DNA of 20,000 nucleotides from the IMG/VR virus record IMGVR_UViG_3300029309_000017; one strand, given 5' to 3'. This DNA is from an uncultured virus (IMG/VR IMGVR_UViG_3300029309_000017) (taxonomy: Duplodnaviria; Heunggongvirae; Uroviricota; Caudoviricetes; Crassvirales). Positions 3,698 through 12,358 of the stretch are shown one piece after another (position 1 is the first letter of the stretch; every line of letters begins with the position of its first letter). Position numbers and translations under genes: made by a program. The notes below the pieces were generated by a model that had not been told where the DNA came from, did no database searches, and saw only the letters and a list, made by a program, of their open reading frames with translations.

Positions 3698-4138
3698 TTA
3701 TCTATCTTTGTCTTTTATCATATCATCAATAGCTTTGTTATAGACTTTGTCTGTATATGATTTATTGTTGTAAAACTTGCTTCGCTCGCTAGTAGGTAAA
3801 TCCTCCTCAGCAAGCAATATTCTGTAAATTCTTGAGATTAGCTGCCTACATCTGAAAGAAGTTTTGTAGACGCTGTATTTAATTGAAGTGCGGTTTCGGT
3901 GTCGCCAAACATCTATCCAGCCTGCTTTACGCAAGCGCTCCCATCTGGCTTTATCCCAGGAGTAAGTATATACCCCTTCTATAAAATCATTACGTGTAAA
4001 TCGCGATTTGCAATCTAAATAGATTAAAAGTTCTAAATCAGCGTCTTTTAACCCATAAGTTTTACAGGCCCATTTGCGAACGAGCCTGTAATACTTAAAC
4101 AAATTCATATCACGTATATCTGTTGCGCTTAGTTTCAT
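3698..4138 (-). CDS. Hypothetical protein, possible winged-helix DNA-binding fold
   Basis: 146 aa; start overlaps the groES stop; DLELLIYL...RLRKAGWIDV pattern is wHTH-like (weak). Confidence 0.7.
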   Translation of the reverse strand: MKLSATDIRDMNLFKYYRLVRKWACKTYGLKDADLELLIYLDCKSRFTRNDFIEGVYTYSWDKARWERLRKAGWIDVWRHRNRTSIKYSVYKTSFRCRQLISRIYRILLAEEDLPTSERSKFYNNKSYTDKVYNKAIDDMIKDKDR

Positions 4139-4392
4139 TCAACAAGTACAACATCGCTAAACTGTATAACTGTGTAAACATTTTCTTTATACGATATACC
4201 ATGACCAGCATGCTTATCATAGAATATAATATCACCAGTTTTAATACCTACAACTTTATCACCTGCAGATATTACTTTAGCTTTTTTATATCTAACCTCT
4301 TTGTCTTTGGCTTCTGCTATTTCTAGCCCACCCATTTTTCGAGGTGCCTCTTTTATTTTTTCTATTATAATGTAGTAATTAATTGCTTTCAT
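4135..4392 (-). CDS. groES: Co-chaperonin GroES (Cpn10)
   Basis: 85 aa; KAINYYIII, mobile loop KMGGLEI, KVISAG, IKTGDIIFY, C-terminal SDVVLV; adjacent to groEL. Confidence 0.9.
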   Translation of the reverse strand: MKAINYYIIIEKIKEAPRKMGGLEIAEAKDKEVRYKKAKVISAGDKVVGIKTGDIIFYDKHAGHGISYKENVYTVIQFSDVVLVE

Positions 4393-5959
4393 TTGTCCTC
4401 ATATTAGATATTACACAATCCGCAGAGATTATAGTTTTAGCAACACTTACTGCATTTTTTAAAGCTGACTTAGTTACAAGTAGTGGATCAACAATACCTT
4501 CTTCAATCATATTTTTAGTACAACCACACGTTACATCAACACCCTCGCCTTCTTCCCACTCATCTACAAATTGTTTTCTTTCTGAGTAATTAGCGTTTTC
4601 AAGTACTTTTTCAAAAGGATATTGTATTGCTGACATTAATATCTTTTCACCATCACCACCGTGAAACTCTGCGTGTTGAGCAGCGTTTAGCAAGGCTATA
4701 CCACCACCTGGTACTACACCTTCTTCAATAGCGGCTTTAGTTGCATGCAATGCATCATCAACTCTATCCATTTTTTCTTTTGCCTCTATTTTAGTATAAG
4801 CACCAACTTTAATCACACTTACAACTCCTGATAACATAGCTAGTCTTTTTTTATGTAAACCTTTCCAAAACTTATCTTTAGTTTCTTTAATTTTCTTTTC
4901 TACAACTTTTATTCTATCTTTTAAAAGCTTTTCATTTTTTTCAACAGTAAGAATTGTAGATTTTTTATCAGTAACAGCTTTCTTTGCTCTACCAAGAACA
5001 TCTGGAGTCATTAAATCCATGTCATCACCAAGTTGTTCACTTATAACTTTAGCACCTGTTAACAATGCTAGGTCTTCAAGCGTGTCTCTCTTTGAAGGTC
5101 CAAAGCCCGGTGAGTCAACTATATTAACTTTTATGTTTCCTTTTACTTTATTCATCATTAATGTAGCAAAAGGTTGTTGCTCCATATCTGCAACAATTAA
5201 CAAAGAAGCTCCTTTTTTAATTACAAACTCCAAAATTGACTGTATTTTACGGACTTGCTCAATTGGTGAGTCGACAATTAGTATATAAGGCTCTTCTAAG
5301 ATAGCTTTGTGGTTGTCTTTATCTGTGTATAAGTGCGGAGACTTGATTTTACACCCACTTAGCTCAACCCCGTCAACAGTTTCAACGTAAGTTGTCTCAT
5401 CTTGTGAGCCTTCCATTAAAACTATACCGTTTTTACCGGCTTTTTCGTAAGCTTCTGCAATTAAATTGCCTAAAATCTCATCATTATTGCAAGAAATTTT
5501 AGCAACATGCTTAATTAGCTCATCATTTGCGGGTTTTTTTATTTTTTCTAGGTATTCTAGCACTTTTTCCAGCGAATAGTCGATGCCTCTTATAATTTGA
5601 CGCGTGTCTTGCCAGCCTTCGTAGCTATTATACTCCTTTAAAACAGCATGGGCAAGTACGGTAGCTGTAGTAGTACCATCACCTGCCTCATCTACTGTGT
5701 TACTAGCGGCTTCTTTTACCAGCGTTACACCCATATTTTCGACCGGATCAATCAAGACTACGCTTTCCGCAACGGTTACACCATCTTTTGTAATCACCGG
5801 TCGACCCATAGAGTCTTCATATATAACGCATTTACCGCCGGCGCCTAAAGTTGAACCAACTGCTTTGGCTAACTTGTCAACACCTTTCATTATTTTAGTT
5901 CTTGCTTTCTTATTAAAACTAAGATCTTTAACTATACTTGTAGTATTATTATAATTCAT
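4379..5959 (-). CDS. groEL: Group I chaperonin GroEL (Cpn60)
   Basis: 526 aa; ITKDGVTVA, AGDGTTTATVLA, PGFG, EEGVVPGGG, GIVDP motifs; no GGM tail. Confidence 0.97.
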   Translation of the reverse strand: MNYNNTTSIVKDLSFNKKARTKIMKGVDKLAKAVGSTLGAGGKCVIYEDSMGRPVITKDGVTVAESVVLIDPVENMGVTLVKEAASNTVDEAGDGTTTATVLAHAVLKEYNSYEGWQDTRQIIRGIDYSLEKVLEYLEKIKKPANDELIKHVAKISCNNDEILGNLIAEAYEKAGKNGIVLMEGSQDETTYVETVDGVELSGCKIKSPHLYTDKDNHKAILEEPYILIVDSPIEQVRKIQSILEFVIKKGASLLIVADMEQQPFATLMMNKVKGNIKVNIVDSPGFGPSKRDTLEDLALLTGAKVISEQLGDDMDLMTPDVLGRAKKAVTDKKSTILTVEKNEKLLKDRIKVVEKKIKETKDKFWKGLHKKRLAMLSGVVSVIKVGAYTKIEAKEKMDRVDDALHATKAAIEEGVVPGGGIALLNAAQHAEFHGGDGEKILMSAIQYPFEKVLENANYSERKQFVDEWEEGEGVDVTCGCTKNMIEEGIVDPLLVTKSALKNAVSVAKTIISADCVISNMRTNESN

Positions 5960-6694: not shown

Positions 6695-6934
6695 TTAAGT
6701 GGAATACCTATTACCACTTTCTTTTTTAGTTCCCATGCCTTCATTACCTCTATTAGACTTTATTGAAACACATTTTTGTCTTTTGTGATCGTAATCATGA
6801 CCTGGAGGACAAGGATTACTTCTACGCTCTCTTTGTGAGTGAGCTTTTTTTGCTCTTCTAGCAGGTGTTTTAGCAAAGGCTAAATCTCTTGCTGCTTTAT
6901 CTCTTTTTGCTTGAGGTGATAGTTTTTGTCCCAT
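6695..6934 (-). CDS. Small basic hypothetical protein, first gene of the leftward arm
   Basis: 79 aa, K/R-rich; DYDH...SNR is weakly HNH-like. Confidence 0.7.
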   Translation of the reverse strand: MGQKLSPQAKRDKAARDLAFAKTPARRAKKAHSQRERRSNPCPPGHDYDHKRQKCVSIKSNRGNEGMGTKKESGNRYST

Positions 6935-6938
6935 ACTG

Positions 6939-6969
6939 TATATAGTTACACGATAAATAATTAAGTTAA
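6939..6969 (-). promoter_or_regulatory. Candidate phage-sigma (middle/late) promoter, TTAAYT-N13-TGTAAYTATATA
   Basis: Minus strand TTAACTTAATTATTTATCGTGTAACTATATA just upstream of ATG 6934; the same pattern occurs at 15870-15900. Confidence 0.45.
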
Positions 6970-6974
6970 AATAG

Positions 6975-7017
6975 TGACAATAGGTGGTTACTTATATAGA
7001 TTATAAGGCTAGTGTCA
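6975..7017. promoter_or_regulatory. Inverted-repeat operator-like site TGACA-N33-TGTCA (copy A)
   Basis: Same half-sites, same 33-nt spacer length and shared internal TTACT and ATTATAAGG as 14464-14506 (in inverted orientation). Confidence 0.6.
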
Positions 7018-7239
7018 TAAAAAAAAGTTGTTAAATATTTTGGGAGTTAGCGTTGCCCCCTCCCCTACACACCATGCATAAAAAAGTAAAGTGCATTATT
7101 TTTGGCCAGCCCCACCTGTATAATCTGGATTTAGCCTATATCACCATGGTTTTATGTATAGCATCTATCTCACCATGTACATCCACTATAATAATTTCTA
7201 TAGAACATTTCACATTTTTCACTACATGTATAGCATTTC

Positions 7240-7271
7240 TTACAAAAGTAATACGGCGCCATATAGATAAT
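7240..7271 (+). promoter_or_regulatory. Early promoter-like motif, copy 1
   Basis: TTACAAAAGT AATACG GCGCCATAT AGATAAT. Confidence 0.75.
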
Positions 7272-7390
7272 AATAATGTAACAAACTAAAAAAATATAAA
7301 TGTTAAAATTAAATTAGAATTAAATATATAATGTGAGAGTGTGTGCAATACTACTAAACTAAATTTAATAAGTAAACAAACAATATACTT

Positions 7391-7422
7391 TTACAAAACT
7401 AATACGAACTAATTTAGATAAT
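7391..7422 (+). promoter_or_regulatory. Early promoter-like motif, copy 2
   Basis: TTACAAAACT AATACG AACTAATTT AGATAAT; upstream of ATG 7460. Confidence 0.8.
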
Positions 7423-7459
7423 AATAATGTAAATAAATAATAACTTAAATATAATAACT

Positions 7460-7690
7460 ATGAGCAATTTAATTTCAAAAAGATTTGTAATAAGAAAATC
7501 ACTAGTCGGTAAAAATCAAGACATCACTGTCAATTTCAAAAATGGCAAAACTGTTACTTACAATCACGATAAAGTGTATGAAGTTATGAAATCTAAACTA
7601 GAAACTATGCCATGTTTCATCAAGTATAAATCTTATACTTCATCAACAAGTGTACCAGTTTCAGTAAGAAGTGTAGTCGAAGTACAGTAA
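7460..7690 (+). CDS. Hypothetical early protein
   Basis: 76-aa ORF downstream of tandem promoter motifs, with an A-rich leader. Confidence 0.8.
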   Translation: MSNLISKRFVIRKSLVGKNQDITVNFKNGKTVTYNHDKVYEVMKSKLETMPCFIKYKSYTSSTSVPVSVRSVVEVQ

Positions 7691-7701
7691 ACTACACTTT
7701 T
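7669..7701 (+). terminator. Hairpin (terminator or processing signal) overlapping the stop codon
   Basis: AAGTGTAGT (7669-7677) pairs with ACTACACTT (7691-7699), followed by TT; the loop is long (13 nt). Confidence 0.35.
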
Positions 7702-7707
7702 AAATAC

Positions 7708-7785
7708 GGGTAACTACATGGACAGTAGCGTATGTGCACCGGAGTTTTTGTGTGTCGCGTAGAGGTTCGACTCCTCTCTTATCCA
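7708..7785 (+). ncRNA. tRNA-like RNA or pseudo-tRNA with G3-U70 and A73 but no canonical anticodon loop
   Basis: Acceptor GGGTAAC/CTTATCC (6 of 7 pairs), perfect T-arm AGAGG-TTCGACT-CCTCT, ends A-CTA; central stem TGCAC/GTGTG has a 10-nt loop. Confidence 0.6.
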
Positions 7786-7807
7786 CTAACTAATATAATA
7801 TAACACT

Positions 7808-7981
7808 ATGAACAGAAAATTTATACACTACGTTTTACTTAGAGTAACTGACATTACTATCAAACTATTCATTGCATCACTTGCAACATTAGCTATCGGC
7901 GGAATACTATCATTCATATTCTTTTGGGTGACAGGTGAGATAACAATCAATGATAACACTTCATTCGGAATATTAGGATAA
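7808..7981 (+). CDS. Small membrane protein (57 aa)
   Basis: Manual translation: MNRKFIHYVLLRVTDITIKLFIASLATLAIGGILSFIFFWVTGEITINDNTSFGILG; one long hydrophobic segment. Confidence 0.7.
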   Translation: MNRKFIHYVLLRVTDITIKLFIASLATLAIGGILSFIFFWVTGEITINDNTSFGILG

Positions 7982-8139
7982 TGAGAAGTTACTACAGTAA
8001 AATACAACAGAGATTTGTAGACAGAGGTGAATACTTTGATGAGCTTCTGTTTGCAACACTCGAACCACCGTTCGATAAACCTGTTACAAATAAAATACGA
8101 AAAGAAACAGATAATAATAATAAAACAAATGATATTTAA
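7981..8139 (+). CDS. Hypothetical protein (52 aa)
   Basis: Manual: MRSYYSKIQQRFVDRGEYFDELLFATLEPPF...; TAATG stop/start coupling with the previous gene. Confidence 0.55.
   Translation: MRSYYSKIQQRFVDRGEYFDELLFATLEPPFDKPVTNKIRKETDNNNKTNDI
8084..8115 (+). promoter_or_regulatory. Early promoter-like motif, copy 3
   Basis: TTACAAATAA AATACG AAAAGAAAC AGATAAT; ATG at 8129. Confidence 0.8.
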
Positions 8140-8347
8140 AGATACCAAATTCAAAGAACTAGACGCTAAAGGTCTAATCACTAAAAAGCTACAACAAATC
8201 GACGAGTTTGAAGCAAACTATAATCCTAATACTTCAAGTCGAGCTATGAAGAAATGGTGTACTGACTATGAATATCGCAAACGTGAGTGGCAATTCCGTC
8301 AAGGTATAGCTGAATACGCTAAACACAATGCACATAAATGCTTATAA
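8129..8347 (+). CDS. Hypothetical early protein (72 aa, MIFKDTKF...)
   Basis: Track ORF 8027..8347; ATG 8129 downstream of the promoter motif is preferred. Confidence 0.7.
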   Translation: MIFKDTKFKELDAKGLITKKLQQIDEFEANYNPNTSSRAMKKWCTDYEYRKREWQFRQGIAEYAKHNAHKCL

Positions 8348-8348
8348 T

Positions 8349-8483
8349 ATGAAGAAAGATTTATATAGATTTGCTAAAGCAAGAAGAAATAAGCGCAAAG
8401 AAATATTTAAATTAAGCGCTGAAGAGATTAAAATGATAGAATATAATTACTATTACAAATATAATACGAATACGTTTAGATAA
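8349..8483 (+). CDS. Hypothetical basic protein (44 aa)
   Basis: Manual: MKKDLYRFAKARRNKRKEIFKLSAEEIKMIEYNYYYKYNTNTFR; fills the gap exactly. Confidence 0.5.
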   Translation: MKKDLYRFAKARRNKRKEIFKLSAEEIKMIEYNYYYKYNTNTFR

Positions 8484-8484
8484 T
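8453..8484 (+). promoter_or_regulatory. Early promoter-like motif, copy 4
   Basis: TTACAAATAT AATACG AATACGTTT AGATAAT; ATG at 8498. Confidence 0.8.
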
Positions 8485-8497
8485 AATATAAAAAACT

Positions 8498-8665
8498 ATG
8501 AATAAAATAAAATTTCTCAATAACAATCACGTTAAAATAACTACTAATAAAGGCGTTGCAATACTAACTAAAACTAATTATACTAAAATATACGACAAAG
8601 AATCTAAAAAATACGTATCTTTAACAATACCTTTTTACAAAATAAACAATAATTACTATGTCTAA
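8498..8665 (+). CDS. Hypothetical protein (55 aa)
   Basis: Manual: MNKIKFLNNNHVKITTNKGVAILTKTNYTKIYDKESKKYVSLTIPFYKINNNYYV. Confidence 0.6.
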   Translation: MNKIKFLNNNHVKITTNKGVAILTKTNYTKIYDKESKKYVSLTIPFYKINNNYYV

Positions 8666-8855
8666 CACACCAAAAAATATGAAAGAACTATGCGAGTACG
8701 TAGCTAACAAGCGTAAATCTCGCAGCCACAATCACCTTGAAATGATTAAAATATATGGTGCTTGTAAAGGTATGGGTAATAGAAAATATAAACTACCGCA
8801 AAAATCTGTTTGGCCTAAGCAACATAAAGCGGCTTATAATAAAATATGGAGATGA
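8658..8855 (+). CDS. Hypothetical basic protein
   Basis: 65-aa ORF in a tightly packed series. Confidence 0.65.
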   Translation: MSNTPKNMKELCEYVANKRKSRSHNHLEMIKIYGACKGMGNRKYKLPQKSVWPKQHKAAYNKIWR

Positions 8856-9049
8856 GTGAAATAAAAAAATATATAAACAACGAATTAAGTAAACTAGATC
8901 GTGGTATAGTGGCTACGCCTACAGAAGATTACCTTGACAAGTTTGCAGAAGCAAACAACGGAAGTAATGACTTATTACTAATGCAATTAGCTAAAAACTA
9001 TGGCTACAAACTAGCTTTACTTGAAATACTAGATGAAATAAATGAGTAA
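8846..9049 (+). CDS. Hypothetical protein
   Basis: 67-aa ORF (start may be ATG 8852). Confidence 0.7.
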   Translation: MEMSEIKKYINNELSKLDRGIVATPTEDYLDKFAEANNGSNDLLLMQLAKNYGYKLALLEILDEINE

Positions 9050-9218
9050 AATGAAAGAACTAGATTTGATTGCACAAGGTGTAGCAGATCACATTAAAGA
9101 AATTATAGAAGATAGTGTCGATTGGCAGTTAGCTGACATACCTCTTGAAGGCGATGACTATAATGACTGTAAAGAATATGTAATAAATGTTGCACTTAAT
9201 AAATTATTACAAAAATAA
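9042..9218 (+). CDS. Small acidic hypothetical protein (58 aa)
   Basis: Manual: MSKMKELDLIAQGVADHIKEIIEDSVDWQLADIPLEGDDYNDCKEYVINVALNKLLQK. Confidence 0.65.
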   Translation: MSKMKELDLIAQGVADHIKEIIEDSVDWQLADIPLEGDDYNDCKEYVINVALNKLLQK

Positions 9219-9238
9219 TACGAATCAAATCAGATAAT
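9207..9238 (+). promoter_or_regulatory. Early promoter-like motif, copy 5
   Basis: TTACAAAAAT AATACG AATCAAATC AGATAAT; ATG at 9250. Confidence 0.8.
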
Positions 9239-9249
9239 ATAATAAAATT

Positions 9250-9438
9250 ATGTATTGTAAATGTGGTAAAATAGTACACCCTGTACGCTTAGAATTAGGT
9301 TATAAAACATGTGTTTCATGTAGTACGACGAAAACGTACTCTTACGTGCCAATAATCGAGCACAAAACAGGTAATACAATACAAATCGTTAGCCAAGAAG
9401 TAAGTGCGTCAGTGCACAGAGCTTGGCGGCGCAAGTAG
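9250..9438 (+). CDS. C4 zinc-finger protein, DksA/TraR-type finger
   Basis: CKCG..VHPVRLELGYKTCVSC matches the CxxCG..I...RL.....CxxC pattern (first pair is CxC). Confidence 0.65.
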   Translation: MYCKCGKIVHPVRLELGYKTCVSCSTTKTYSYVPIIEHKTGNTIQIVSQEVSASVHRAWRRK

Positions 9439-9715
9439 TTGGAAGGTGCTGCTGTTAGCGGCAGACTACTTAAAAAGCTACATGATTAAAGGCGAACTTG
9501 ATTCGGCTCGATGATTGTAGTTTGTGAAGAACAACCACAGCTTGAAATAGTAGTGCACGGTTGTGAAGCAGGTACAGTATCACGGATTGCAGAGTAATTA
9601 ACTGCATGCACGGTGGAAGTCCGACTGCGAATGTGATGAGTAATAATGCAAGTGTATGAGGTTCTTAGCCCTCCACTAAAAATACTCAAATAGAATTTGC
9701 ATAGATAACTGTACT
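9433..9715 (+). ncRNA. Putative structured ncRNA of unknown family
   Basis: No plausible + strand gene, GC-richer than flanks. Helices: AAGTAGT/ACTACTT, TGCTGCT/AGCGGCA, GCTACA/TGTAGT, ACAACC/GGTTGT, GTACAGT(9572)/ACTGTAC(9708), TGCAG/CTGCA, TGCAAGT/ATTTGCA. Confidence 0.55.
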
Positions 9716-9718
9716 TAT

Positions 9719-9795
9719 GGGCGTGAAATGGTTAGACTACGCACCAGGGTTTCCCATGGTTGGTAGTAACGCAGGTTCGATTCCTGCCACGTCCA
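9719..9795 (+). ncRNA. Mini tmRNA-like RNA (tRNA-like domain only)
   Basis: GGGCGTG/CACGTCC acceptor with G3-U70 and A73; stemless D-loop AAATGGTTAGA; interrupted helix CTAC/GTAG, ACCA/TGGT, GGG/CCC; T-arm GCAGG-TTCGATT-CCTGC. Confidence 0.7.
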
Positions 9796-9800
9796 CTAAC

Positions 9801-9943
9801 AGGGTAAAACACGAAGGACGGTAAGCATAACACCAAAAGCATCATGTGGTGCCGACTATCGACGGATATAAGCGAGCGTACGGAAGTGTATTATGTGAGG
9901 TGGCAAACCTCAGAAAGCGTGGATACGTGCACAGTATCACCCT
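9801..9943 (+). ncRNA. Putative structured ncRNA of unknown family
   Basis: Closing AGGGT/ACCCT; internal CATAA/TTATG, CACCA/TGGTG, TGAGGT-GGCAA-ACCTCA, GATAC/GTATC. Confidence 0.45.
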
Positions 9944-9962
9944 TAATATTAAATTTAAAATT

Positions 9963-10331
9963 ATGAATTGGAAACAAGAACAACTAGCACTAGAAGATGC
10001 GTTTGTAAGACAAATGCTTATTAACTACAACATTAAAGAAGTAACCACACAGCGTCAAGCTATAAACGGTACAAGAATATTTATTTGTCCTGATGGTCAG
10101 TTACTCGGCTCATACAAAAGCGGTTACGTTAGAAGATGTGACAGTAGCGATAGAATATGGCAATTAAACCCTAAATACAAGCGTAAAGTAAGATATGTAT
10201 TTCTTAAAAGTAAAGGCTTAGTTACTGAAGAACATGATATGTGGTCAAGAGCACTGATCTATTCTGGCATAGCTAGATTGAACTTTTTACTTCAATATTA
10301 CTTAAAAAATTACAAAACAAATACGAAATAA
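9963..10331 (+). CDS. Hypothetical protein (122 aa, MNWKQEQ...)
   Basis: Track ORF 9846..10331; ATG 9963 with the leader AAATTTAAAATT is preferred. Confidence 0.75.
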   Translation: MNWKQEQLALEDAFVRQMLINYNIKEVTTQRQAINGTRIFICPDGQLLGSYKSGYVRRCDSSDRIWQLNPKYKRKVRYVFLKSKGLVTEEHDMWSRALIYSGIARLNFLLQYYLKNYKTNTK

Positions 10332-10341
10332 ATCAGATAAT
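10310..10341 (+). promoter_or_regulatory. Early promoter-like motif, copy 6
   Basis: TTACAAAACA AATACG AAATAAATC AGATAAT; ATG at 10355. Confidence 0.8.
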
Positions 10342-10354
10342 ATAATAAACGAAT

Positions 10355-10594
10355 ATGAAAACAGTTTGGAATACATTAAAACCTTTGTATCAAAACAAAA
10401 TTAAAGAAAATACTCGTACATATAGCTCTGCTAAAAGACTTAAATACAAGTTGATGTCTGCTAGTGGTTGGTATGATTTATCTATGCGTGACATACAAGG
10501 TATACTTACATACACTGATAAATATACTCACGAGATTACAGCAACAGATATTATGTACGGTACAGAATTTTTAAAACCAGAAGACAATGAGTGA
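10355..10594 (+). CDS. Hypothetical protein
   Basis: 79-aa ORF after the promoter motif. Confidence 0.75.
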   Translation: MKTVWNTLKPLYQNKIKENTRTYSSAKRLKYKLMSASGWYDLSMRDIQGILTYTDKYTHEITATDIMYGTEFLKPEDNE

Positions 10595-10853
10595 CTCAGT
10601 AAAAGCATGGCATGAAATGCAAGAAGAAAAAATAGTAGCAAAAGAATTAGGAGAACACATACCTAGATTTATATTTCTACTAGATTTTAATGATGGTAAT
10701 GTATATAGATATGACATTAGCGCATTATGTAACGAAGAAAATAGTTGGAATCCTGACTCAGAGTCTTGTGAAGCGTTTTTATACGGCGCAGGTCACAAAG
10801 TAAGTGACTGTGAGTGGATGGTAACAACAACAAGTAAAATAACAATTAAATAA
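10587..10853 (+). CDS. Hypothetical protein
   Basis: 88-aa ORF with overlapping stop/start. Confidence 0.75.
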   Translation: MSDSVKAWHEMQEEKIVAKELGEHIPRFIFLLDFNDGNVYRYDISALCNEENSWNPDSESCEAFLYGAGHKVSDCEWMVTTTSKITIK

Positions 10854-10858
10854 TAAAT

Positions 10859-11323
10859 ATGGCAGAACTATTAACAGATGATATTATCATCGAAAAACTA
10901 AACGAAGATGGCTATATGCAGGAGCCGGATGGCCCTTGGATATTAGAATATATCTATGAAAATCATGGCGGTAAATTAGATACTACAAGTGACTTTGTAG
11001 ATAACAAATGGACTTTAAAAATATACAGTGAATGTACTTACGATTCTTATGATATATACTTTTGTACTTTTGACGATAGACCTTATGTATCACAAGATGG
11101 TTATTATTATGAAAATTATTCTGATTGGTCAGACAGAGCATTAGAAGAATTAGTTAACGGTACAGATGTATGGGTAGATCCTAATCTATGGTCAGACATG
11201 GAATATGACTTTAACTACAGACTAGAAGAGTGGTGGCAAGATGTATACGAAGAATTATCAGACGAAAAGAAAGAAGAATTATTAGACTCAGAAGATTATT
11301 ATGAAGAAAAGGAAACTGAATAG
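10859..11323 (+). CDS. Highly acidic, aromatic-rich protein (possible DNA mimic)
   Basis: 154 aa; about 45 D/E versus about 10 K/R by hand count. Confidence 0.75.
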   Translation: MAELLTDDIIIEKLNEDGYMQEPDGPWILEYIYENHGGKLDTTSDFVDNKWTLKIYSECTYDSYDIYFCTFDDRPYVSQDGYYYENYSDWSDRALEELVNGTDVWVDPNLWSDMEYDFNYRLEEWWQDVYEELSDEKKEELLDSEDYYEEKETE

Positions 11324-11447
11324 TACTAATCCAAAGTACATGAAGCAAGTGGCTGATAATCAACCAGTTGTAAAAGAAAAAAGATTAATTAGTAACAAAG
11401 GTAAGATTAAAGCTTACGCAATATTTTTAGAAAATGACAGAGACTAA
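11301..11447 (+). CDS. Small basic hypothetical protein (48 aa)
   Basis: Manual: MKKRKLNSTNPKYMKQVADNQPVVKEKRLISNKGKIKAYAIFLENDRD; bridges the two neighbours. Confidence 0.5.
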   Translation: MKKRKLNSTNPKYMKQVADNQPVVKEKRLISNKGKIKAYAIFLENDRD

Positions 11448-11694
11448 ACAAATACTACCTAAATGGTTTAATGGTGAAGTATATACTGACGGCGGTATAG
11501 TATCAAATCCTTTTACAGGTATTGAAGTAGAACTAACAGCTGAGGAATTATCTATATATGATTTCATAAAAGGCGCTGAATACTATATAGCTATATCAGG
11601 TAAACAAAACGATAAACTAGCAGACGAGATGCATAAAGGCTTGATGTGGTTTGCAAAGAACAACATTGAAGCTTATATGACATTACTCGACTAA
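11434..11694 (+). CDS. Hypothetical phage protein
   Basis: 86-aa ORF (NPFTG...ELSIYDFIKG...AYMTLLD). Confidence 0.8.
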   Translation: MTETKQILPKWFNGEVYTDGGIVSNPFTGIEVELTAEELSIYDFIKGAEYYIAISGKQNDKLADEMHKGLMWFAKNNIEAYMTLLD

Positions 11695-11706
11695 TGCTAT
11701 ACACAT

Positions 11707-11780
11707 TGCGCGGTAGAGCAGTTGGCCAGCTCGCGAGCCTCATAAGCTCGAGGTCGGTGGTTCGAATCCACCCTGCGCAC
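11707..11780 (+). tRNA. tRNA-Met (CAT), CCA not encoded
   Basis: Full cloverleaf: TGCGCGG/CTGCGCA, D GAGC/GCTC, anticodon CGAGC-CTCATAA-GCTCG, T GGTGG-TTCGAAT-CCACC. Confidence 0.93.
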
Positions 11781-11794
11781 CTAAAATTTAAATT

Positions 11795-12358
11795 ATGGCA
11801 ACAAGAAACTTAATAATGGTCGTAGACCGTAAACACAGTAGTAAATACCCAGAAGGCTTTGCTATTCACCCAGATCTTGTACGTGACAAGAGCTATGTTA
11901 ACATGTATATGCACCACGATGGTTATCCTGAGTGGCAAGGCGTACAAATTGCTAACTGGTTACTAACAAGTAACAATGGATGCATGGATGGCGCTAGGTT
12001 AGCTGGTAAATTAGTGCATGATATGTATTATGATAGTTGTTACTTATATAGTGACGCACAGCAAATAGATCACGAGTATAGATATGTAATATGGAGCGGT
12101 AATAAAGATAAAATACATGTAAGCTGCTGGAATATGTACAAAAGCGAGTGTGTGTTCGTGTTAAAACCACATAAAATTATATCTAAATATATGGCAGATA
12201 TGGATTACACTGATTTTTCTATTGGTGAAACTAGATTATCACAGCAAGAATTTAAACGTGATGCAGGTTTAGAGTTTCATACAAAAGAAGAAATAGAGAA
12301 ATATAATAAAGTTAGAGCTAACGCTCAGTCAATCATAGATATACTAACTACAAAATAA
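11795..12358 (+). CDS. Conserved-type phage protein of unknown function (MATR...YxHxDGYP...G)
   Basis: 187 aa; the YMHHDGYPEWQG motif is recalled from phage hypotheticals (not searched). Confidence 0.8.
   Translation: MATRNLIMVVDRKHSSKYPEGFAIHPDLVRDKSYVNMYMHHDGYPEWQGVQIANWLLTSNNGCMDGARLAGKLVHDMYYDSCYLYSDAQQIDHEYRYVIWSGNKDKIHVSCWNMYKSECVFVLKPHKIISKYMADMDYTDFSIGETRLSQQEFKRDAGLEFHTKEEIEKYNKVRANAQSIIDILTTK

Follow-up and report, generated by a model that had tools for sequence, protein, structure and literature searches.

A probable tmRNA gene reduced to its tRNA-like domain in an uncultured marine phage, and the clade-wide family to which it belongs

INTRODUCTION

Phages are known to carry genes for transfer-messenger RNA (tmRNA) in complete and in reduced form. 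Complete tmRNAs have been reported for Bxz1-like mycobacteriophages and Bacillus phage G, and a two-piece ssrA for the marine myophage Melnitz (PMC9004378); the same source reports tmRNA genes in 2.3% of 18,146 phage genomes. A tmRNA consisting of the tRNA-like domain (TLD) only was reported in 2014 for mycobacteriophage DS6A (Hudson, Lau & Williams, PMC4131195; tmRNA Website tmID 11587), and tmRNAs without a reading frame have been described from jakobid and oomycete mitochondria (RF02544) and, as forms of ~65 bp, from the plastids of Mallomonadaceae (PMC11915505). That is, phage tmRNAs, one TLD-only phage form and frame-less organellar forms are already known. Here we analyse an element at positions 9719..9798 (+ strand) of a 20,000-nucleotide (nt) stretch of DNA, hereafter the window, taken from IMG/VR record IMGVR_UViG_3300029309_000017, an uncultured virus of the Crassvirales. 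The element is very probably a phage-borne tmRNA gene of which only the TLD is left, and represents a diverged branch, A1, of a clade-wide family. The initial annotation of the window, made from the letters alone, had proposed such an RNA, adding that no phage RNA of the kind was known to have been described; the latter statement does not stand, the DS6A TLD-only tmRNA being already in print (PMC4131195, PMC11915505).

Two properties of the TLD are central to what follows. As described in PMC3985003, the G-U pair at position 3 of tmRNA is fully conserved and is the determinant for alanyl-tRNA synthetase (AlaRS), and the deformed D arm is the main contact of SmpB, the TLD and SmpB together mimicking a whole tRNA. 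A TLD-only molecule is reported to inhibit tmRNA strongly, perhaps by titration of SmpB (PMC4131195, citing Mao et al. 2009; restated in PMC11915505).

RESULTS

Structure of the element and its matches to RNA models

The element consists of 77 nt up to a discriminator A, followed by a CTA trailer, and all of its parts lie on the + strand. The 5′ strand of the acceptor, GGGCGTG (9719..9725), pairs over 7 bp with CACGTCC (9788-9794) and includes the pair G3.U70; the 3′ side of the acceptor (9788..9798) closes with the discriminator A (9795) and CTA (9796-9798), and CCA is not encoded. The acceptor is followed by a stemless D-loop, AAATGGTTAG (9726..9735), which is 10 nt long, contains GG and is preceded by no 5′ D-stem strand. 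The position of an anticodon arm is taken by a P2-like helix (9736..9767) with an ACTAC/GTAGT base, an inner ACCA/TGGT helix and a GGG-TTT-CCC tip, that is, a hairpin of 32 nt that is interrupted and closed by a 3-nt loop. An AAC linker (9768..9770) then leads to the T arm GCAGG/TTCGATT/CCTGC (9771..9787), which is perfectly paired. The minimum free energy (MFE) fold of 9719-9798 is the same three-way junction (-33.5 kcal/mol, z = -3.78), and none of 200 shuffled sequences was as stable.

Sequence and MFE fold together bear out the 7-bp acceptor, the G3-U70 pair, the discriminator A and the ACTA tail listed in the initial annotation, and the hairpin replacing the anticodon arm, with its GGG-TTT-CCC cap, (T)AAC linker and perfect T arm, was seen where it had been placed. 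The D-loop is indeed unpaired, stemless and GG-containing, but it measures 10 rather than the 11 nt first given: 10 nt is the family consensus, and the eleventh base, A9736, pairs with T9767. Because the fold beats shuffled sequences, the 80 nt are identical in another contig where the flanks cannot be aligned, and the helices covary (see below), these features are more than the product of chance.

No tRNA is called at the element. The sole ARAGORN call in the window is a tRNA-Met at 11707-11781, and Rfam at its curated gathering cut-offs (47 bits for tmRNA, RF00023; 29 bits for tRNA, RF00005) also reported this tRNA-Met only, with no call for 9719-9798. Neither did ARAGORN call anything at the element in any of 56 family loci (60 loci scanned). 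The expectation that no typed tRNA would be found here is therefore borne out by both programs, and the D stem, the 7-nt anticodon loop and the score of at least 29 bits that mark a canonical tRNA are all absent from the element.

When the search was restricted to the element, the Rfam tmRNA model aligned end to end (model positions 1-374, with 318 interior positions skipped) at 28.1 bits, the best match within the Rfam tRNA clan. The identical 80-nt copy from the other contig, run through the genome-search pipeline, scored 36.7 bits with the tmRNA model against 26.8 bits with the tRNA model (RF00005), and the tmRNA model was superior in 5 out of 5 family genes (33.5-37.7 versus 12.1-27.2 bits). 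The mitochondrial tmRNA model RF02544 had no match at E<=10 to any of these five genes, and produced only two weak matches (14.6-14.7 bits) elsewhere in one genome. In three metagenome-assembled genomes (MAGs) searched with the tmRNA model, the real tmRNAs scored 142-174 bits, the family members came next at 35.0-39.1 bits, and everything else stayed at or below 28.4 bits. The anticipated match to both ends of tmRNA was thus obtained, at scores below the cut-off. No family genome gave an above-cut-off match in the Rfam tmRNA search of these genomes.

The absence of an mRNA-like domain, also claimed at the outset, is confirmed by the ~300 tmRNA-model positions that are skipped and by the lack of a tag frame in the family inserts: among 70 inserts (22-104 nt) examined, there was no consistent stop-terminated frame and no tag-like ending. 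A candidate tag frame that would stop at TAG TAA in the 3′ strand of P2 was dropped, as no frame was consistent across members. Neither a full tmRNA nor a tag frame was found at this locus in any relative. Since the features of a full tmRNA (resume codon, tag frame and pseudoknots) are absent, the element is classed as a TLD-only form.

Family size and distribution

A pattern scan of IMG/VR identified a second phage contig (L049) in which the 80 nt are 100% identical whereas the flanking sequences cannot be aligned. The exact 3′ 22-mer of the element occurs at 65 loci on 64 IMG/VR contigs, 62 of which have GGGCGTG within 110 nt; the remaining 3 are longer elements (146 and 152 nt) or have a GGACGTG acceptor. 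With the acceptor left free and the T arm fixed, 55 viral loci were retrieved, of which 50 carry CACGTCC; the other 5 comprise an ordinary tRNA-Glu, a divergent form and three loci whose acceptors are compensated or altered. The T-arm pattern matched ~520 stretches, by estimate, in marine and other metagenomes, and among the 119 metagenome matches listed CACGTCC is present in 113 (85 unique sequences, 71 of them new). In total, 137 distinct family sequences were collected from IMG/VR and metagenome contigs. The 70 unique members referred to below are a 71-sequence set minus one ordinary tRNA-Glu. A pattern scan in which only the loop and the T loop were fixed found further members, mixed with ordinary tRNAs.

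Among 185,579 cellular species representatives, the 3′ 22-mer was found in six MAG contigs only, five of 0.6-8.6 kb and one of 56 kb with two copies 3′ of a gene for the zinc-ribbon protein zn62 introduced below. This near confinement to viral DNA means that the element is no copy of a host gene or attachment site. A 56-kb contig binned with a Bacteroidetes MAG (L113) holds TLD genes in tandem (1763-1853 and 1920-2025), the first of which has a G7.U66 wobble and an encoded ACCA. As for cultured phages, blastn of 9400-10000 against a phage collection gave no match, blastn of the 80 nt gave T-arm matches to tRNAs only, and four cultured Flavobacteriia-phage relatives, taken from the primase-helicase matches, had no TLD-like match above 9 bits. 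No cultured carrier was therefore found in the phage collection (searched by blastn and tblastn) or among the four Flavobacteriia phages.

Conservation and covariation

Upstream of the TLD on the same strand lies an ORF for a 62-aa zinc-ribbon protein (zn62; 9250..9438, +), and loci for a comparison of acceptors were fetched via this neighbour gene, not via the RNA itself. A GG...TCC-type element stands 3′ of the zn62 gene in 56 of the 80 loci so fetched. The acceptor is GGGCGTG/CACGTCC in 35 of these 56 loci, GGGGGTG/CACCTCC in 14, GGGAGTG/CACTTCC in 6 and GGACGTG/CACGTCC in 1. In other words, pair 4:69 varies between C-G, G-C and A-U, and pair 3:70 is G.U in 55 out of 56. Retention of G3-U70 and of the stemless D-loop by homologs, on which the initial annotation had staked its proposal, is observed. 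Among the 70 unique members, 67 have G3.U70.

The frame was further examined in a mixed alignment of 21 sequences. All cells (100%) are paired, 6 of the 12 pairs vary on both sides, and slid registers come nowhere close; 20 of the 21 sequences have G.U at 3:70, whereas pair 4:69 is found as C-G, G-C, A-U and U-A. For the insert helix, 29 short members were aligned, and 93.6% of cells are paired versus 84.6% in shuffles, with all five base pairs of the helix base varying on both sides. A script allowing register shifts found a closing P2 helix in 69 of the 70 unique members, with 34 different starting sequences, the pairs within these helices being 374 Watson-Crick, 14 G.U and 7 U.G. Across the subfamilies, seven versions of the T stem exist; each is paired throughout, six by Watson-Crick pairs and one with a G.U. 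The modal D-loop is the 10-nt string seen in the window, which is present exactly in 70 of the 137 family sequences; a 10-nt loop together with a 3-nt linker is the commonest combination (32/70 members), and the ACTA tail is found in 65 of the 71 unique sequences (the 70 family members plus the ordinary tRNA-Glu). The acceptor, T and hairpin-base helices therefore covary in related phage contigs, as had been proposed for verification, and these alignments indicate that the structure is under strong purifying selection.

Subfamilies and relation to host tmRNA

A second subfamily, A2, occupies the same locus and is characterized by a GGGGGTG acceptor and a uniform length of 80-83 nt. On the Rfam tmRNA model, A2 elements score 53.1-65.7 bits, above the 47-bit cut-off in 7/7 loci, and four A3 or hybrid members score 36.1-39.9 bits. 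The A2 loop is GGTTTTGAC or GGTATTGAC, and GGA stands 5′ of the T stem. The loop motif GGTTTTGAC is found in 13 of 15 tmRNAs of a Bacteroidetes MAG and its relatives. The A1 members L071, L072 and L074 also have GGTATTGAC, so that the subfamilies grade into one another. The A1 branch of the window, with its altered loop GGTTAGAC, its linker TAAC and its score below the cut-off, is the more derived one. As to the 3′ end, 13 of 15 host-type tmRNA genes do not encode CCA and end in CCACTT, CCACAA or CCACAT (L171, L389-L401, L169), and CCA must therefore be added post-transcriptionally in such hosts; the 3′ end of the phage family differs from those of the host-type tmRNAs. Descent of the family from a Flavobacteria-type tmRNA is, jointly with its identity as a TLD-reduced tmRNA gene, regarded as highly probable.

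Genomic context

The window is DNA of a phage, and among its ORFs are those for GroES/GroEL, an ATP-dependent DNA ligase, an ERF recombinase, a PDDEXK nuclease, a primase-helicase and a thymidylate synthase. The GroES/GroEL pair lies at 4135-5959 on the - strand (Cpn10 32 bits, Cpn60 187 bits). By its primase-helicase, the nearest cultured relative is Cellulophaga phage phi10:1 (42.8% identity). By tblastn, ~65 loci have the zn62 gene on the TLD strand, always shortly 5′ of the TLD, at 42-95% identity and with a gap of 3-410 nt, and its relatives are encoded on 192 viral contigs. The C-terminus of the protein, ...VH(R/K)xWRRK, is invariant. zn62 matched no Pfam or PHROG family and no PDB sequence, an ESM Atlas search returned viral hypothetical clusters only, and tblastn found no match in the cultured-phage collection; its AlphaFold model is weak (predicted local distance difference test, pLDDT, 66.3).

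The tRNA-Met(CAT) at 11707..11781 (+; ARAGORN and Rfam) lies ~1.9 kb 3′ of the TLD on the same strand. A tRNA-Met is also found 3′ of the TLD in other phages, often 10-1500 nt away, and in L049 a tRNA starts ~10 nt past the TLD that is identical to that of the window. In the window's tRNA-Met gene, as in the TLD gene, the discriminator (N73) is followed by CTA. No SmpB gene was found in five genomes of 97-100% completeness; any SmpB partner must therefore be the host's. Among the 22 ORFs of the window, no aminoacyl-transferase, release-factor-like or SmpB gene was recognised. A promoter and terminator scan of 6900-12000, whose scope does not include Bacteroidetes promoters, gave promoter-like sites at chance level and no terminators.

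Part of 9440-9965 is present in 24 listed runs, 15 of which are recorded as RNA. Contigs of four marine RNA libraries from four studies were mapped to 9300-10100, presence in an RNA library being no proof of transcription. The zn62 ORF is very deep in these contigs (summed word depth up to 12,927), and the hairpin modules upstream of the TLD (see below) are also covered. The first TLD bases have depths of 3.7 and 38.4, and the 3′ part of the TLD has a depth of 4.8-6.2 in one run. Most of the TLD body is uncovered in 3 of the 4 RNA runs, and 9300-9326, 9813-9839 and 9894-10100 are uncovered by contigs in the 4 runs, neither of which is evidence of absence. One RNA-library contig joins 9689 to 9768 via 18 other letters, which is what would be expected of a relative that has the upstream module at 9627-9706 inside its TLD.

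Hairpin modules in and around the TLD

The inserts of the family are hypervariable (22-104 nt), and the shortest A1 members have a hairpin of 22-24 nt only. Inserts of other members recur as free hairpin modules next to the TLD of the window, all on the + strand: 9482..9516 equals the TLD insert of L105 (100% over 35 nt; a related version is in L099), 9627..9706 is homologous by alignment to the inserts of L069, L047 and L045, and 9844..9895 equals the insert of L062 and L070 (100% over 52 nt). More generally, TLD inserts recur outside their frames in 140 BLAST hits, all of them on the TLD strand and no more than a few hundred bases away. The hairpin at the P2 tip of the window copy is itself found nested in L074 and free in L062, and whole inserts lie inside longer inserts in three strict cases. 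These sequence comparisons indicate that, in the subfamily of the window, the tip of P2 is a permissive landing site for shuffled and nested modules. Rfam in E-value mode found nothing on 9230-9720, and 11 related loci gave tRNA and tmRNA only; the modules therefore belong to no known family. Counted by eye, there are at least 15 conserved hairpin modules (9440-9718 and 9799-9962; L043-L107), which are shuffled between phages. A single rigid large RNA spanning 9440-9965 was considered and is unsupported, its fold being no stabler than shuffles (z = -1.26).

Other tRNA-like genes in these phages

A second anticodon-less tRNA-like gene is present in the window at 7708-7788 (+). Its acceptor, GGGTAAC/CTTATCC, has G3.U70 and, at 7:66, a C.C mismatch; the GG loop is stemless, the hairpin is variable, the T arm is AGAGG/CCTCT and the tail is ACTA. 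The same plan is shared by seven of the nine IMG/VR matches to its 5′ 18-mer, with covariation in the T stem, and a copy of this type in G009 scores 15.3 bits on the Rfam tmRNA model.

A further type, C, has the acceptor AACTAG./.CTAGTT without G3.U70 (L349:1147-1219, L313:1168-1256, L357, L359 and others). Type C genes lie 1-2 nt 5′ of the TLD and can hold the same hairpin modules; in L349 a type C gene, the TLD and a tRNA-Met form an array with spacers of 1-5 nt. The hammerhead-like motif CTGACGAG in type C genes was dropped as a candidate, there being no matching GAAA or helix layout. Minihelices of ~41 nt made of an acceptor plus T arm, with a short GG loop, were seen at G001:60766-60806, G003:13131-13171 and G004:18466-18506 (L177-L179), and their acceptors covary (AGATAT/ATATCT versus AGACAT/ATGTCT). 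Finally, L003, L016, L026, L039 and L040 have paired tRNA-like genes that share the loop AAATGGTTAGA, the T arm and an ACTA/ACCA tail, and whose A-rich acceptor lacks G3.U70.

DISCUSSION

Proposed working of the TLD-only RNA

A possible course of events, for which we put the chance somewhat short of even from transcription through to competition with host tmRNA, is as follows. The TLD would be transcribed with the upstream zn62 gene as part of an early unit on the + strand, and would be excised like a tRNA, with RNase P cutting at G1, 3′ trimming at A77 and CCA supplied by the host enzyme. Host AlaRS would then charge it with alanine by way of G3.U70 and A73, and host SmpB would bind it. Because it offers no reading frame, the charged TLD would compete with host tmRNA for SmpB and stalled ribosomes, so that tagging for degradation would be blocked or diverted during infection. 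The P2 tip is predicted to point away from the parts that matter, and inserted hairpin modules would therefore be tolerated there. Maturation by the host tRNA pathway with CCA addition may reasonably be inferred, since the tRNA-Met shares the CTA trailer and 13 of the 15 host-type tmRNA genes lack CCA. Taken as a whole, a TLD-only tmRNA acting in the way just outlined is, by a modest margin over even chances, the best explanation.

Several observations weigh against this interpretation. The TAAC linker and T arm of A1 match those of a phage tRNA-Glu (L124) letter for letter, and the A1 frame may therefore be a mosaic or derive from a tRNA. The tandem G.A signature at the base of P2 is clear in A2 (GAC...GGA) and degraded in A1 (GAC...GTAAC). 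The window copy, at 28.1 bits, and the identical copy, at 36.7 bits, both stay below the 47-bit tmRNA cut-off. Three of the 70 unique members lack the G.U pair, L101 and L130 having A3-U70 and the divergent L150 having G3-C70, and as the frame is near-invariant, retention of G.U is no more striking than that of its neighbours, except for the contrast with 4:69. The type C frames, which hold the same modules without G3.U70, suggest a more general role of such frames. Alanine charging, SmpB binding, the mature ends and an effect on tagging are predictions, and there is no obvious gain to a phage from blocking trans-translation.

Alternative explanations

The hairpin modules might themselves be the active parts, in the P2 loop as well as in the flanks, the tRNA-like frame serving as a handle for processing and stability by which stable small RNAs would be released from the early transcript through RNase P and RNase Z. 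The hypervariability of the inserts (22-104 nt, ~140 distinct versions), the occurrence of the same modules free in the flanks, nested, and in a frame without G3.U70 (L357, L359), and the arraying of tRNA-like genes with spacers of 1-5 nt (L349) would all fit. However, the A2 body is uniform at ~81 nt, without variable cargo, yet is conserved and the most tmRNA-like, and the shortest A1 members hold a hairpin of 22-24 nt only. Moreover, a mere handle would need neither a fixed G3.U70 beside a covarying 4:69 nor a near-invariant D-loop, and since the modules work equally well outside the frame, the frame is not required for them. We consider this explanation unlikely.

A bolder scheme, which we regard as a long shot, would make the TLD the fixed anchor of a recombining RNA-cassette system, in which at least 15 conserved hairpin modules move among the flanks, the tip of P2 and one another's loops; zn62, with its basic C-terminal helix that never varies, would be a phage-made partner of the TLD that replaces or blocks SmpB. 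If this were true, the phage would run its own ribosome-directed ribonucleoprotein, rather than merely titrate a host factor.

Alanine could also be put to use off the path of trans-translation, with the RNA acting as an alanyl donor for a non-ribosomal transferase, or as a tag-free rescuer that adds alanine and passes the stalled ribosome on to another release factor, a role assumed for the organellar tmRNAs that lack a frame. The identity set G1-C72, G2-C71, G3.U70 and A73 is kept in three acceptor variants, and the unrelated tRNA-like gene at 7708-7788 keeps the alanine identity set too; furthermore, frame-less tmRNAs persist in mitochondria and some plastids, where they are thought to help with incomplete mRNAs, as stated in PMC11915505. 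Such a use is nevertheless improbable, as no transferase, release-factor-like or SmpB gene was recognised (22 window ORFs, and for SmpB also the five genomes), and the sole printed experimental hint for a phage-type TLD-only RNA, that in PMC4131195, is of inhibition, not of rescue.

Equally improbable is a role as decoy or sponge against host defences by which tRNA- or tmRNA-like RNAs are sensed or cut, for example through SmpB-like domains or tRNA nucleases. CoCoNuTs defence systems have SmpB-like OB folds predicted to bind tmRNA-like RNA (PMC10542128), the gene sits in an early region, and extreme conservation of the frame combined with diverse decorations would suit an arms race, but the element lacks an anticodon loop that could imitate the target of a nuclease, no link to a defence gene was seen (no test was aimed at one), and a decoy fails to explain why the frame tracks the D-loop of host tmRNA and the alanine identity.

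Lastly, a functionless leftover, whether a piece of host ssrA of the attP type or a tRNA gene in decay, can be dismissed as extremely improbable: ssrA-integrating phages do carry its 3′ end and prophage ssrA fragments are known (PMC9004378), but the gene, with both strands of its acceptor present, closes on itself, its 3′ 22-mer is nearly absent from cellular genomes and differs from host-type tmRNA 3′ ends, and it is 100% conserved amid unalignable flanks, with covarying helices.

Significance and comparison with known systems

A TLD-only tmRNA thus remains the preferred identity of the element, and it takes the tag-less phage tmRNA from a curiosity of one mycobacteriophage to a design fixed throughout an abundant, uncultured clade of marine phages, the carriers being phages of Flavobacteria-like hosts. 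This suggests that phages in the sea regularly tamper with ribosome rescue during infection, or put an alanine-accepting tmRNA mimic to some other use. Natural variants are at hand in the form of three acceptors all with G.U, two A3-U70 variants, and the compact A2 versus the cargo-bearing A1. As ARAGORN and, for most subfamilies, Rfam at curated thresholds miss the family, surveys of phage tmRNAs must undercount such genes. The shuffled and nested modules around and in the TLD are an unexplained feature that may merit a study of its own. A literature search, whose scope did not extend to supplementary lists of viral tmRNAs, found no description of a clade-wide marine TLD-only family. What appears to be new is the span of the family over a whole clade and the landing site for modules at the P2 tip in the window's subfamily; the series of subfamilies from cut-off-passing to diverged forms and the fixed neighbour gene were not found in the literature either.

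The complete phage tmRNAs resemble the marine family in being phage-borne ssrA genes in early units, but they keep the mRNA-like domain and the tag, and ARAGORN detects them but none of the marine family genes in the 60 loci scanned. The frame-less organellar tmRNAs are also conserved, TLD-only and without a tag frame. However, no sequence kinship was found (RF02544 against five family genes), and the organellar forms act with imported SmpB in an organelle, not in a virus.

The TLD of Flavobacteria-type tmRNA shares with the family G1-C72, G2-C71, G3.U70, G7-C66, A73 and the T loop TTCGAWT, and in A2 also the loop GG-TTTT/TATT-GAC and the GGA 5′ of the T stem. CCA is not encoded in either (13/15 host-type genes). 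The difference is that the ~300 internal positions comprising pseudoknots, resume codon and tag frame are absent from the family.

The closest likeness is with DS6A. Its TLD-only gene (83 nt, JN698994 28478-28560) scores 43.2 bits on the Rfam tmRNA model, below the cut-off. Its acceptor is likewise of 7 bp with G3.U70, its GG loop has no stem, and its single P2 hairpin is joined to the T arm by a linker of 3 nt. It is also phage-encoded, ~80 nt long, with an ACTA tail, no tag frame and an end-to-end tmRNA match under the cut-off. The two differ in that the host phyla are unrelated and there is no sequence kinship beyond the tmRNA consensus. Furthermore, DS6A is a single reported case, whereas the present family extends over at least 64 IMG/VR contigs and an estimated ~520 metagenome stretches and, unlike DS6A, is divided into subfamilies, with a constant neighbour gene and with hairpin modules inserted into the tip of P2.

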